From the NCBI RefSeq assembly GCF_056746865.1, contig NZ_CM163382.1: a DNA stretch of 64,000 nt, one strand, 5' to 3'. Below, piece after piece: positions 3,356 to 61,217 of this stretch. Position numbers and translations under genes: made by a program. The notes below the pieces were generated by a model that was given only the letters and a program-made list of their open reading frames with translations, was not told where the DNA came from and ran no database searches. Position 1 is the stretch's first letter. The number at the start of each line of letters is the position of its first letter.

Positions 3356-3955
3356 ATGAACAAACACACCGAACATGATACTCGCGAACATCTCCTGGCA
3401 ACGGGCGAGCAACTTTGCCTGCAACGTGGATTCACCGGGATGGGGCTAAGCGAATTACTAAAAACCGCTGAAGTGCCGAAAGGGTCCTTCTATCACTACT
3501 TTCGCTCTAAAGAAGCGTTTGGCGTTGCCATGCTTGAGCGCCATTACGCCGCATATCACCAGCGACTGACTGAGTTGCTGCAATCCGGCGAAGGTAACTA
3601 CCGCGACCGCATACTGGCTTATTACCAGCAAACACTGAACCAGTTTTGCCAACATGGAACCATCAGTGGTTGCCTGACAGTAAAACTCTCTGCCGAAGTG
3701 TGCGATCTGTCAGAAGATATGCGTAGCGCGATGGATAAAGGCGCTCGCGGCGTGATCGTTCTGCTCTCGCAGGCGCTGGAAAATGGCCGTGATAGCCATT
3801 GTTTAACCTTTTGTGGCGAACCGCTGCAACAGGCACAAGTGCTTTACGCACTATGGCTGGGTGCGAATCTGCAGGCCAAAATTTCGCGCAATTCCGAGCC
3901 ACTGGAAAACGCGCTGGCACATGTAAAAACCATTATTGCGACGCCTGCCGTTTAG
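3356..3955 (+). CDS. nemR: TetR-family electrophile-sensing repressor NemR
   Basis: 199-aa ORF with N-terminal TetR HTH; immediately upstream of nemA. Confidence 0.93.
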   Translation: MNKHTEHDTREHLLATGEQLCLQRGFTGMGLSELLKTAEVPKGSFYHYFRSKEAFGVAMLERHYAAYHQRLTELLQSGEGNYRDRILAYYQQTLNQFCQHGTISGCLTVKLSAEVCDLSEDMRSAMDKGARGVIVLLSQALENGRDSHCLTFCGEPLQQAQVLYALWLGANLQAKISRNSEPLENALAHVKTIIATPAV

Positions 3956-3991
3956 CAGGCATTTTTTATCACCAGACGACCGGGAGCCTTT

Positions 3992-5089
3992 ATGTCATCT
4001 GAAAAACTGTATTCCCCACTGAAAGTGGGCGCGATCACGGCGGCAAACCGTATTTTTATGGCACCGCTGACGCGTCTGCGCAGTATTGAACCGGGTGACA
4101 TCCCTACCCCGTTGATGGCGGAATACTATCGCCAACGTGCCAGTGCCGGTTTGATTATTAGCGAAGCCACGCAAATTTCTGCCCAGGCAAAAGGGTATGC
4201 TGGTGCACCTGGCATCCATAGTCCGGAACAAATTGCCGCATGGAAAAAAATTACCGCTGGCGTTCATGCTGAAAATGGTCATATGGCCGTACAGCTGTGG
4301 CACACCGGACGCATTTCTCACGCCAGCCTGCAACCTGGCGGTCAGGCACCGGTAGCGCCTTCCGCACTTAGCGCGGGAACACGTACTTCTCTGCGCGATG
4401 AAAATGGTCAGGCGATCCGTGTTGAAACATCCATGCCGCGTGCGCTTGAACTGGAAGAGATTCCGGGTATCGTCAATGATTTCCGTCAGGCCATTGCTAA
4501 CGCGCGTGAAGCCGGTTTTGATCTGGTAGAGCTCCACTCTGCTCATGGTTATTTGCTGCATCAGTTCCTTTCTCCTTCTTCAAACCATCGTACCGATCAG
4601 TACGGCGGCAGCGTGGAAAATCGCGCACGTCTGGTGCTGGAAGTGGTCGATGCAGGGATTGAAGAATGGGGTGCCGATCGCATTGGCATTCGCGTTTCGC
4701 CAATCGGTACTTTCCAGAACACAGATAACGGCCCGAATGAAGAAGCCGATGCACTGTATCTGATTGAACAACTGGGTAAACGCGGCATTGCTTATCTGCA
4801 TATGTCAGAACCAGATTGGGCGGGGGGTGAACCGTATACTGATGCGTTCCGCGAAAAAGTACGCGCCCGTTTCCACGGTCCGATTATCGGCGCAGGTGCA
4901 TACACGGTAGAAAAAGCCGAAACGCTGATCGGCAAAGGGTTAATTGATGCGGTGGCATTTGGTCGTGACTGGATTGCGAACCCGGATCTGGTCGCCCGCT
5001 TGCAACGCAAAGCTGAGCTTAACCCACAGCGTGCCGAAAGTTTCTATGGAGGCGGTGCGGAAGGCTACACGGATTACCCGACGCTGTAA
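3992..5089 (+). CDS. nemA: N-ethylmaleimide reductase (Old Yellow Enzyme family, FMN)
   Basis: 365-aa ORF, OYE-type TIM barrel sequence. Confidence 0.95.
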
Positions 5090-5169: not shown

Positions 5170-5577
5170 ATGCGTCTTCTTCATACCATGCTGCGCGTTG
5201 GCGATTTGCAACGCTCCATCGATTTTTATACCAAAGTGCTGGGCATGAAACTGCTGCGTACCAGCGAAAACCCGGAATACAAATACTCACTGGCGTTTGT
5301 TGGCTACGGCCCGGAAACCGAAGAAGCGGTGATTGAACTGACCTACAACTGGGGCGTGGATAAATACGAACTCGGCACTGCTTATGGTCACATCGCGCTT
5401 AGCGTTGATAACGCCGCTGAAGCGTGCGAAAAAATCCGTCAAAACGGGGGTAACGTCACCCGTGAAGCGGGTCCGGTAAAAGGCGGTACTACGGTTATCG
5501 CGTTTGTGGAAGATCCGGACGGTTACAAAATTGAATTAATCGAAGAGAAAGACGCCGGTCGCGGTCTGGGCAACTAA
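5170..5577 (+). CDS. gloA: Glyoxalase I (lactoylglutathione lyase)
   Basis: 135-aa [23 protein letters not shown]..., recognised as GloA. Confidence 0.96.
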
Positions 5578-23457: not shown

Positions 23458-23710
23458 GATTTATTCCTTTGCTGCATCTGTGTGCCTTTATTGCTACCTA
23501 AGTGTAAAGGCTACGGAGGATTTATCCACGACAGATTTTGAGATGGTGGCAAACAACTCTGTTTAAACTCTGATACACGGATTATTGGGTTGTATCTGAT
23601 GTAAATGCGATCCTGAATAAAAATCGCCCTTGCAAATCAACAAAATATAGCCAATTTGCTTAAAAGCTCTGCAAACGGTCGAAATAGCGCAGAAAATTAC
23701 GTTTTGCCTC

Positions 23711-23739
23711 TTGCCACCTTCCCACTCTGCCGCTAATAT
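23711..23739 (+). promoter_or_regulatory. Candidate sigma70 promoter of the valV-valW tRNA operon
   Basis: TTGCCA (-35), 17-bp spacer, TAATAT (-10), then GC-rich discriminator CGTCCCCG typical of stringently controlled stable-RNA promoters; about 27 bp upstream of valV. Confidence 0.5.
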
Positions 23740-23765
23740 TCGTCCCCGTTGTCACCTACAACGTT

Positions 23766-23842
23766 GCGTTCATAGCTCAGTTGGTTAGAGCACCACCTTG
23801 ACATGGTGGGGGTCGTTGGTTCGAGTCCAATTGAACGCACCA
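23766..23842 (+). tRNA. valV: tRNA-Val (anticodon GAC)
   Basis: 77-nt cloverleaf GCGTTCATAGCTCAGTTGGTTAGAGCACCACCTTGACATGG...TGAACGCACCA; anticodon GAC; encoded CCA. Confidence 0.97.
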
Positions 23843-23846
23843 TCCT

Positions 23847-23923
23847 GCGCCCGTAGCTCAGTTGGTTAGAGCACCACCTTGACATGGTGGGGGTCGGTGG
23901 TTCGAGTCCACTCGGACGCACCA
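23847..23923 (+). tRNA. valW: tRNA-Val (anticodon GAC), with C4 opposite A69 in the acceptor stem
   Basis: 77-nt cloverleaf GCGCCCGTAGCTCAG...CTCGGACGCACCA, 4 bp after valV; 5' strand GCGCCCG against 3' strand CGGACGC. Confidence 0.93.
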
Positions 23924-24030
23924 GATTTTCTTAATCTGGTCTTCTCCTTTTTCCCTCTGTTTCTTCTCTGTATCCAATACGTTAAAAGATTTACACTGTC
24001 TTCGTATGCGTTATCAGAAGGAGAATCGCT

Positions 24031-24336
24031 ATGGCAACTTTGTTACAACTTCATTTTGCTTTTAATGGCCCATTTGGCGACGCAATGGTTGAGCAGCTTG
24101 AACCGCTTGCTGAGTCGATTAATCAGGAACCTGGTTTTCTGTGGAAGGTATGGACAGAAAGTGAAAAGAACCACGAAGCCGGTGGGATCTACCTTTTTAC
24201 TGATGAAAAAAGCGCCCTTGCCTATCTGGAAAAACATACTGCCCGACTGAAAAATCTCGGCGTTGAGGAAGTTGTCGCCAAAGTTTTCGATGTCAATGAG
24301 CCACTTAGTCAAATCAATCAGGCAAAACTCGCCTGA
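24031..24336 (+). CDS. ydhR: Putative monooxygenase (Dabb/ActVA-Orf6-like)
   Basis: 101-aa ORF, recognised as YdhR. Confidence 0.88.
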
Positions 24337-49153: not shown

Positions 49154-50348
<1,195 letters not shown>

Positions 50349-50352
50349 CTTA

Positions 50353-54119: not shown

Positions 54120-55715
54120 ATGAAACCTGTAAAACCACCTCGTATTAATGGACGAGTGCCGGTCCTGTCGGCACAGGAAGCGGTGAATTATATTCCCGAC
54201 GAAGCAACACTTTGTGTGTTAGGCGCTGGCGGCGGTATTCTGGAAGCCACCACGTTAATTACAGCTCTTGCTGATAAATATAAACAGACTCAAACGCCAC
54301 GTAATTTATCGATTATTAGTCCGACAGGGCTTGGCGATCGCGCCGACCGTGGTATTAGTCCGCTGGCGCAAGAAGGTCTGGTGAAATGGGCATTATGCGG
54401 TCACTGGGGACAATCGCCGCGTATTTCTGATCTCGCAGAACAAAATAAAATTATTGCTTATAACTATCCACAAGGTGTACTTACACAAACCTTACGCGCC
54501 GCCGCAGCCCACCAGCCTGGTATTATTAGTGATATTGGCATCGGAACATTTGTCGATCCACGCCAGCAAGGCGGCAAACTGAATGAAGTCACTAAAGAAG
54601 ACCTGATTAAACTGGTCGAGTTTGAAAACAAAGAATATCTCTATTACAAAGCGATAGCGCCAGATATTGCCTTCATTCGCGCTACCACCTGCGACAGCGA
54701 AGGCTACGCCACTTTTGAAGATGAGGTGATGTATCTCGACGCATTGGTTATTGCCCAGGCGGTGCACAATAACGGCGGTATTGTGATGATGCAGGTGCAG
54801 AAAATGGTTAAGAAAGCCACGCTGCATCCTAAATCTGTCCGTATTCCGGGTTATCTGGTGGATATTGTGGTGGTCGATCCGGATCAAACCCAACTGTATG
54901 GCGGTGCGCCGGTTAACCGCTTTATTTCTGGTGACTTCACCCTTGATGACAGCACCAAACTTAGCCTGCCCCTAAACCAACGTAAATTAGTTGCACGGCG
55001 CGCATTATTCGAAATGCGTAAAGGCGCGGTGGGGAATGTCGGCGTCGGTATTGCTGACGGCATTGGCCTGGTCGCCCGGGAAGAAGGTTGTGCTGATGAC
55101 TTTATTCTGACGGTAGAAACAGGTCCGATTGGCGGAATTACTTCACAGGGTATCGCCTTTGGCGCGAACGTGAATACCCGCGCCATTCTGGATATGACGT
55201 CCCAGTTTGATTTTTATCACGGTGGTGGTCTGGATGTTTGTTATTTGAGTTTTGCTGAAGTCGACCAGCACGGTAACGTCGGCGTGCATAAATTCAATGG
55301 CAAAATCATGGGCACCGGTGGATTTATTGATATCAGTGCCACTTCGAAGAAAATCGTTTTCTGCGGCACATTAACTGCGGGCAGTTTAAAAACAGAAATT
55401 ACCGACGGCAAATTAAATATCGTCCAGGAAGGACGGGTGAAGAAATTTATTCGGGAACTACCGGAAATTACTTTCAGCGGAAAAATCGCTCTCGAGCGAG
55501 GGCTGGATGTTCGTTATATCACTGAGCGCGCAGTATTCACACTGAAAGAAGACGGCCTGCATTTAATCGAAATCGCCCCTGGCGTCGATTTACAAAAAGA
55601 TATTCTCGACAAAATGGATTTCACCCCAGTGATTTCGCCAGAACTCAAACTGATGGACGAAAGATTATTTATCGATGCGGCGATGGGTTTTGTCCTGCCT
55701 GAAGCGGCTCATTAA
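54120..55715 (+). CDS. ydiF: Fused alpha/beta acyl-CoA:acetate CoA-transferase
   Basis: 531-aa ORF, family I CoA-transferase. Confidence 0.9.
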   Translation: MKPVKPPRINGRVPVLSAQEAVNYIPDEATLCVLGAGGGILEATTLITALADKYKQTQTPRNLSIISPTGLGDRADRGISPLAQEGLVKWALCGHWGQSPRISDLAEQNKIIAYNYPQGVLTQTLRAAAAHQPGIISDIGIGTFVDPRQQGGKLNEVTKEDLIKLVEFENKEYLYYKAIAPDIAFIRATTCDSEGYATFEDEVMYLDALVIAQAVHNNGGIVMMQVQKMVKKATLHPKSVRIPGYLVDIVVVDPDQTQLYGGAPVNRFISGDFTLDDSTKLSLPLNQRKLVARRALFEMRKGAVGNVGVGIADGIGLVAREEGCADDFILTVETGPIGGITSQGIAFGANVNTRAILDMTSQFDFYHGGGLDVCYLSFAEVDQHGNVGVHKFNGKIMGTGGFIDISATSKKIVFCGTLTAGSLKTEITDGKLNIVQEGRVKKFIRELPEITFSGKIALERGLDVRYITERAVFTLKEDGLHLIEIAPGVDLQKDILDKMDFTPVISPELKLMDERLFIDAAMGFVLPEAAH

Positions 55716-59927: not shown

Positions 59928-61217
59928 ATGTCGGATGACAAATTTGATGCCATTGTGGTCGGTGCGGGCGTTGCCGGTAGCGTTGCCGCACTGGTCATGG
60001 CGCGAGCCGGGCTGGATGTCCTGGTGATAGAACGCGGCGACAGTGCCGGATGTAAAAACATGACCGGCGGGCGTCTTTATGCCCACACACTTGAAGCGAT
60101 TATTCCAGGCTTTGCAGCATCAGCGCCGGTAGAACGCAAGGTCACACGCGAGAAAATCTCCTTCTTAACCGAAGAAAGCGCCGTTACCCTCGACTTTCAC
60201 CGCGAGCAACCAGATGTTCCGCAACACGCGTCTTATACCGTATTGCGTAATCGTCTGGACCCGTGGTTGATGGAACAAGCCGAGCAGGCGGGCGCGCAGT
60301 TTATCCCGGGCGTACGCGTCGATGCGCTGGTTCGTGAAGGAAACAAGGTCACTGGCGTGCAGGCCGGGGATGATGTTCTTGAAGCGAATGTGGTGATTCT
60401 GGCTGATGGCGTTAACTCGATGCTTGGCCGCTCGCTGGGAATGGTTTCCGCTTCCGATCCGCATCATTACGCTGTTGGTGTTAAAGAGGTTATTGGCTTC
60501 ACACCAGAACAGATCAACGATCGCTTTAATATTACGGGCGAGGAAGGTGCCGCCTGGCTGTTTGCCGGTTCCCCTTCTGACGGCCTGATGGGTGGCGGAT
60601 TCCTCTATACCAATAAGGATTCCATATCGTTGGGGCTGGTTTGTGGATTGGGTGATATCGCCCATGCGCAAAAAAGCGTGCCGCAAATGCTGGAAGATTT
60701 TAAACAACACCCCGCCATTCGCCCGCTGATTAGCGGCGGCAAACTGCTTGAATATTCCGCGCATATGGTGCCGGAAGGCGGTCTGGCAATGGTGCCGCAG
60801 CTGGTTAACGATGGCGTGATGATCGTTGGTGACGCCGCAGGCTTCTGCCTGAATTTGGGTTTTACAGTTCGCGGCATGGATTTAGCCATTGCATCAGCTC
60901 AGGCTACCGCCACAACAGTGATTGCCGCCAAAGAACGCGCGGATTTCTCCGCCAGCAGTCTGGCGCAATACAAACGTGAGCTGGAACAAAGTTGTGTTAT
61001 GCGCGATATGCAGCATTTCCGCAAGATCCCGGCGCTGATGGAAAATCCGCGCCTGTTTAGTCAGTATCCGCGCATGGTCGCCGACATCATGAACGATATG
61101 TTCACCATTGACGGCAAACCAAACCAGCCGGTACGCAAAATGATCATGGGACACGCGAAAAAAATTGGGCTGATCAACTTGCTGAAAGATGGCATTAAGG
61201 GAGCAACCGCGCTATGA
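59928..61217 (+). CDS. ydiS: FAD-dependent oxidoreductase (FixC-like ETF-quinone oxidoreductase family)
   Basis: 429-aa ORF with N-terminal dinucleotide-binding motif AIVVGAGVAGS. Confidence 0.9.
   Translation: MSDDKFDAIVVGAGVAGSVAALVMARAGLDVLVIERGDSAGCKNMTGGRLYAHTLEAIIPGFAASAPVERKVTREKISFLTEESAVTLDFHREQPDVPQHASYTVLRNRLDPWLMEQAEQAGAQFIPGVRVDALVREGNKVTGVQAGDDVLEANVVILADGVNSMLGRSLGMVSASDPHHYAVGVKEVIGFTPEQINDRFNITGEEGAAWLFAGSPSDGLMGGGFLYTNKDSISLGLVCGLGDIAHAQKSVPQMLEDFKQHPAIRPLISGGKLLEYSAHMVPEGGLAMVPQLVNDGVMIVGDAAGFCLNLGFTVRGMDLAIASAQATATTVIAAKERADFSASSLAQYKRELEQSCVMRDMQHFRKIPALMENPRLFSQYPRMVADIMNDMFTIDGKPNQPVRKMIMGHAKKIGLINLLKDGIKGATAL

Follow-up and report, generated by a model that had tools for sequence, protein, structure and literature searches.

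A rare valW allele with a mismatched acceptor stem in the valV valW operon of Escherichia coli

In Escherichia coli, valV and valW are transcribed together, and a UCCU spacer lies between the two tRNAs in the dicistronic transcript (PMC2190699, PMC4176162). The tRNAs are separated solely by RNase P, which acts at the mature 5' ends: the cut between them is the one at the 5' end of valW (PMC2190699, PMC4176162). The terminator of the operon is Rho-dependent and unstructured, and the transcript is trimmed there by PNPase and RNase II (PMC2190699, PMC4176162). The same work counts five genes for tRNA-Val(UAC) (PMC2190699/PMC4176162).

The recognition of valine tRNAs by valyl-tRNA synthetase (ValRS) is covered in a review, whose account of valine gives A35, C36, A73, G20, and G45 as the identity elements (PMC9976931). 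In that account, mutations of U4-A69 affect valine acceptance, which is impaired by a G.U at the third or fourth pair, and 4:69 is a sensitive position of the acceptor stem (PMC9976931). A regular, fully paired acceptor helix is reported there to be necessary for efficient recognition by ValRS (PMC9976931). Defective tRNA precursors in E. coli are described as targets of polyadenylation and degradation (Li et al. 2002, as cited in PMC3561954).

The valV valW operon in the window

We analyzed a 64-kb stretch of DNA from assembly GCF_056746865.1 (contig NZ_CM163382.1), which we refer to as the window. It contains valV and valW in tandem between ydhQ and ydhR, and the 4-nt TCCT spacer between the two genes is the one that was described for this operon (PMC2190699). 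The features of the locus are as follows.

23711-23739, plus strand: promoter-like site for the valV valW operon, TTGCCA and TAATAT with a 17-nt spacer (found by consensus scan alone, with 9 matches out of 12)
23766-23842, plus strand: valV, tRNA-Val(GAC) (ARAGORN; Rfam tRNA score of 70.1 bits)
23843-23846, plus strand: TCCT spacer between valV and valW, 4 nt, as read from the sequence; the RNase P cut is at its 3' edge
23847-23923, plus strand: valW, tRNA-Val(GAC), variant allele with the C4.A69 mismatch (ARAGORN; Rfam tRNA score of 65.3 bits)
23850, plus strand: variant base at tRNA position 4, which is C here and T in nearly all E. coli
23916, plus strand: A69, opposite position 4 and unchanged as read from the sequence, so that the change is uncompensated
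23920-23940, plus strand: weak terminator-like hairpin from a consensus scan, with 8 pairs (G-C pairs make up 3 of these); it takes in the ACCA end of valW and has a T-rich tail after it

A G+C-rich stretch follows the predicted promoter-like site, which is 27 nt upstream of valV. Because the literature gives Rho-dependent termination at this locus, the hairpin is unlikely to function as an intrinsic terminator.

Apart from the mismatch, valW has the features of a tRNA-Val(GAC). Its score for the Rfam tRNA family (RF00005) compares with a gathering score of 29, ARAGORN places the anticodon GAC at positions 34-36, and the identity elements A35, C36, A73, and G45 can all be read in the sequence. 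G45 is within the variable region GGGTC, and A73 is the A at 23920, just before CCA. Position 20 is U in this isoacceptor, the wild type included; G20 is a minor element of the identity list. The window's valV is identical to the valV of MG1655 and to that of strain ET201, which is discussed below. Besides the variant base, valW can be told from valV by positions 5, 7, 50, 64, 66, and 68.

On the opposite strand, we noticed a match to RF02194 (HPnc0260, a Helicobacter antisense RNA family) at 23885-24047, with 112 bits against a gathering score of 59. The match is about equally strong in MG1655 (112.1 bits) and ET201 (110.3 bits). Since the T-arm and acceptor strand of valW are the reverse complement of the 3' part of the match, it may be driven largely by this complementarity to the tRNA.

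The acceptor stem of valW is formed by GCGCCCG (23847-23853) and CGGACGC (23913-23919), which leaves C4 opposite A69. The first-pass annotation had reported this mismatch, and both the sequence and cmscan bear it out: both tRNA genes align to the Rfam tRNA model from end to end, and 4:69 is the sole pair of valW that cmscan marks as non-standard. Thus, valW lacks the fully paired, regular acceptor helix. The stem of valV is fully paired (GCGTTCA and TGAACGC), as had also been noted, and the start of the K-12 gene, which had been given as GCGTCCG, proved correct. The proposed check with ARAGORN gave tRNA-Val(GAC) for both genes, and since both tools still make this call, the annotation is unaffected by the mismatch, whether or not it is real. 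We also considered a shift in register that might restore pairing. If A69 were bulged, C4 and C5 would pair with G68 and G67, but C6 would then be opposite C66, so by inspection there is no gain.

Rarity of the C allele and strain background

When 23700-24000 is aligned to MG1655, just 1 of the 301 bases differs: 23850, which is C in the window and T in MG1655. The window's gene departs at position 4 from the exact T-bearing 77-mer for valW, which was found unchanged in 5,349 of the 5,425 complete E. coli genomes, and T is also found in 118UI, a near relative of the window's strain. These comparisons support the T-to-C transition that the first-pass annotation had proposed. In 76 of the 5,425 genomes, valW differs from the wild-type 77-mer in some way. 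Separately, one of 5,426 complete genomes has no match whatever to the valV valW region.

We then considered whether other valW sequences carry C, which had been raised as a check. Our probe was a 41-mer centred on 23850, ATTGAACGCACCATCCTGCGCCCGTAGCTCAGTTGGTTAGA, for which a megablast seed is possible only if the C is present. It matched just one of 5,426 complete E. coli genomes, that of ET201 (NZ_CP100994.1), which is from frog faeces in China; so C is a rare variant and not the norm. None of the complete E. coli genomes that we searched has G69. In a collection of metagenome contigs, the exact variant 77-mer had no matches, while a control search that allowed any base at positions 4 and 69 found at least 139 valW-type copies in at least 120 contigs, with T4:A69 in all of the matches listed.

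Comparison of these sequences indicates that T is the ancestral base at 23850 and that C is derived. The C allele is derived, uncompensated, and very rare. We see no new kind of element here: the valV valW operon is known, and one public genome already carries the same rare allele of valW.

The window is not derived from K-12, as it is 98.4% identical to MG1655 over the 6.3 kb around valW, and an origin from ET201 (98.3% identity around valW) is ruled out as well. Because the flanks in ET201 are so diverged from those in the window, the sequences indicate that C4 in these two genomes reflects independent occurrences, not common ancestry. The nearest genomes to the window are those of 118UI, EC31, and EF5-18-41, and in a search with a 20-kb query, at least 25 complete genomes had a bit score that fits one mismatch. 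Compared to 118UI, a 48-kb stretch of the window is identical except at 23850 and 37401, and the entire 64 kb has four substitutions, all of which are transitions, with no indels or frameshifts. Besides the change in valW, the differences are as follows.

37401: G here, A in 118UI; changes Leu152 of SufS to Ser (L152S)
55541: synonymous change in ydiF
60498: L191F in YdiS
49155-50349: copy of IS5, 1.2 kb, with the InsH transposase ORF at 49186-50202 and the terminal repeats GGAAGGTGCGAA...

The IS5 element splits ydiM, which encodes an MFS transporter; neither 118UI nor EC31 has IS5 at this location, and the insertion is private. Of the four substitutions, three, including the one at 23850, are rare. 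The 41-mer for 37401 matched none of the 5,426 complete E. coli genomes, a SufS protein with L152S is not on record in a large collection of assemblies, and the variant at 55541 had no match among the complete E. coli genomes. The fourth, at 60498, is common to just three genomes, CFSAN061770, EC31 (from a meat duck), and EF5-18-41 (from a chicken), and this sharing implies that these are the nearest relatives. From these comparisons, the window represents a distinct strain with a small set of private changes of its own, one of which is the change in valW.

These data bear on whether the change is real; the first-pass annotation had allowed for either a mutation with functional effects or a sequencing error. 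If C were due to an error in sequencing, assembly, or polishing, the strain would have T at 23850 and a normal tRNA. An error would account for C being unique among near-identical relatives and for its breaking a pair that keeps to Watson-Crick pairing in all the other tRNA-Val(GAC) genes that we examined. In addition, the collections yielded no independent assembly for comparison: two further substitutions match none of the complete genomes, and SufS L152S is absent from the larger collection. However, 64 kb without indels or frameshifts, with just four transitions and a clean insertion of IS5 relative to 118UI, speaks against an error, and none of the four variant sites falls in a Dam or Dcm motif, where methylation might have led to systematic errors in base calling. 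The sharing of the 60498 variant by three related genomes implies that at least this substitution is real, lineage-specific variation, and the identical change in valW was found in ET201, which was sequenced independently. We consider an error to be the less likely explanation, though a plausible one, and we put the chance that the mutation at 23850 is real at about two in three.

The reading that we prefer, with a probability of roughly 0.6, is that a recent and real mutation has left this copy of valW partly defective, and that the defect is buffered, so that the allele would be nearly neutral to mildly deleterious. This reading depends in part on modeling of the tRNA, which we turn to below.

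Constraint on pair 4:69 and predicted effects of the mismatch

We examined the 4:69 pair in other species by sampling one genome per species and searching with the core of the tRNA (the D-arm and the anticodon arm). The resulting 120 loci, from Gammaproteobacteria and Betaproteobacteria, contain 148 copies of tRNA-Val(GAC), with 47 distinct sequences. Among the distinct sequences, pair 4:69 is C:G in 29, A:U in 10, and U:A in 8, and it is never mismatched. Because the pair is Watson-Crick in all 47 sequences and occurs in three states, it covaries and is kept paired. The valW allele with C4 opposite A69 is absent from all 148 of these genes. In Pantoea stewartii, one sampled locus (L114, 496-739) has three tandem genes for tRNA-Val(GAC): a gene of the E. 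coli valW type, with U4:A69, is flanked on each side by one with C4:G69. Thus, both states coexist within the Enterobacterales.

The scan found just one non-standard pair in the acceptor stem, A5.C68, which occurs in 18 copies: 17 in Pseudomonas loci and 1 in a metagenome-assembled genome. ARAGORN confirmed that these genes encode tRNA-Val(GAC). Examples from Pseudomonas are at 2145-2221 in sampled locus L054, at 3945-4021 and 4686-4762 in L073, and at 5414-5490 and 5650-5726 in L122. The A5.C68 mismatch is uncompensated, is found in many species of Pseudomonas, and is present in both copies if the locus has two; other Pseudomonas have A5:U68 or G5:C68. These sequences suggest that an A.C mismatch in the acceptor helix of tRNA-Val(GAC) can persist in some lineages, and since A5.C68 is fixed in species of Pseudomonas, an A.C in this helix need not be harmful.

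We predicted the effect of C4 on folding with ViennaRNA parameters, which indicate the direction of an effect and not its size. The predicted energy of the valW cloverleaf rises from -31.3 kcal/mol in the wild type to -26.2 kcal/mol in the variant, with 4:69 open, or a loss of about 5 kcal/mol. The minimum-energy structure predicted for the variant is not a cloverleaf, because C4 strengthens a competing helix between G3-C6 and the run of Gs in the variable region: this structure is at -33.3 kcal/mol in the variant, and the same fold is at -27.7 kcal/mol in the wild type. The predicted probabilities of the acceptor pairs fall from about 0.98 in the wild type to about 0 in the variant. The Rfam tRNA score also drops, by 4.3 bits, from 69.6 bits for valW of MG1655 to 65.3 bits in the window.

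These predictions come from a model that takes no account of tertiary contacts, Mg2+, or modifications, or of a protonated A+.C wobble pair; such a pair, if it formed, would soften the defect. Also, when the valV valW precursor with its flanks is folded at equilibrium, the wild type itself is predicted to misfold (the acceptor-pair probability is about 0.1), so that this folding says nothing about the effect of C4. This prediction fits a report that the predicted structures occlude the RNase P sites (PMC2190699).

Under the preferred reading of a real and partly disabling mutation, a derived T-to-C change at position 4 of valW would lie in an otherwise ordinary valV valW operon. In the transcript, C4 opposite A69 would replace U4:A69 midway along the 7-bp acceptor helix, so that the helix would be weakened and the competing fold would be favoured. 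The irregular helix at 4:69 would be expected to raise the Km for valyl-tRNA synthetase. In the kinetic study by Liu et al. from 1997, the effect of 4:69 was reportedly mainly on Km and tracked the distortion of the A-form helix. The isoacceptor in the 4:69 kinetics of Liu, Chu, Liu and Horowitz (1997) is said to have been tRNA-Val(UAC). The published kinetics for G.U thus concern another pair and reportedly another isoacceptor than C.A in tRNA-Val(GAC), which would limit how far they transfer by analogy.

Processing may be affected too. Cleavage by RNase P at the 5' end of valW could be slowed, and the same step frees the 3' end of valV. Because this cut alone separates the dicistron, a weaker or misfolded acceptor helix in valW could, according to the folding model, delay the release of valV as well. 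The precursor of valW could also be exposed to degradation. There is a likely parallel in the work of Li, Reimers, Pandit and Deutscher from 2002, in which the precursor of a destabilised mutant tRNA (Trp) was reportedly polyadenylated and degraded.

The cell should tolerate a defective valW, because valV is intact and tRNA-Val(UAC), whose genes are elsewhere in the genome, reads the same codons. The modified wobble base of tRNA-Val(UAC) reads the U-ending codon and reads the C-ending codon less well. We would expect the C4 allele to be short-lived in evolution.

Other explanations, implications, and closest known systems

Could the allele instead have been selected? If it is real, C4.A69 arose at least twice, in the window's strain and in ET201, and it might be useful under some conditions. 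For example, a pH- or temperature-sensitive A+.C wobble pair might tune the supply of tRNA-Val(GAC), or a changed acceptor stem might let valW escape a toxin or nuclease that recognises this stem; we know of no toxin that targets tRNA-Val(GAC). The independent appearance of the same change in two lineages of E. coli speaks for selection, and the A.C that is fixed at the neighbouring pair in Pseudomonas tRNA-Val(GAC) is a precedent. But with a single match among 5,426 genomes and none in metagenome contigs, the allele shows no sign of clonal expansion, and two transitions at the same site among thousands of genomes, 76 of which have some variant of valW, fit recurrent mutation. We think it very improbable that the allele was selected.

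It seems similarly improbable that C4 is best described as an early stage in the replacement of U4:A69 by C4:G69, in which a compensatory change would follow and the mismatch is the intermediate: the covariation of 4:69 across species (with C:G the most common state), the C4:G69 copies in Pantoea stewartii, and the greater predicted stability of a valW with C4:G69 (-33.4 kcal/mol, as compared to -31.3 kcal/mol for the wild type) all speak for it, but G69 is absent from the complete E. coli genomes, intermediates of this kind are mostly lost, and this explanation describes a possible future of the allele rather than its current function and overlaps with the preferred reading.

If the mutation is real, as the preferred reading holds, then one of the two copies of this tRNA gene in the strain is partly disabled, and the allele belongs to the kind of mildly deleterious variation normally removed by purifying selection. 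The strain would also offer a natural test case for two published ideas: that 4:69 is the most sensitive position in the acceptor stem for valyl-tRNA synthetase, and that cleavage by RNase P at valW is needed for the release of valV. If the C is an error, it serves as a warning about the quality of the assembly.

Among known systems, the closest is valW of E. coli K-12, which shares the locus between ydhQ and ydhR, the TCCT spacer, the adjacent valV, and 76 of 77 nucleotides; the difference is that K-12 has T at position 4 and a paired U4:A69, whereas the window has C. ET201 has the identical 77-nt allele, with C4 and an uncompensated A69, and an identical valV, but it belongs to another lineage, with flanks that are 98.3% identical to the window. 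Engineered mutants at 4:69 of tRNA-Val (Tamura 1991; Liu, Chu, Liu and Horowitz 1997; via PMC9976931) altered the same base pair of an E. coli valine tRNA, and in the review's account of them, the irregular geometry of G.U lowers the efficiency of aminoacylation. As this account describes them, those mutants had G.U in transcripts made in vitro, and C.A in the GAC isoacceptor is not among them (PMC9976931). The quality control of defective tRNAs in E. coli provides a precedent for the fate of a destabilised mutant precursor, although it involved a different tRNA (Trp) from valW. Finally, the tRNA-Val(GAC) of Pseudomonas shares the conserved core of the tRNA and has an uncompensated A.C (A5.C68) one pair away in the acceptor stem. 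The A5.C68 mismatch is fixed across many species, where it is tolerated or used, whereas C4.A69 in E. coli is a singleton.
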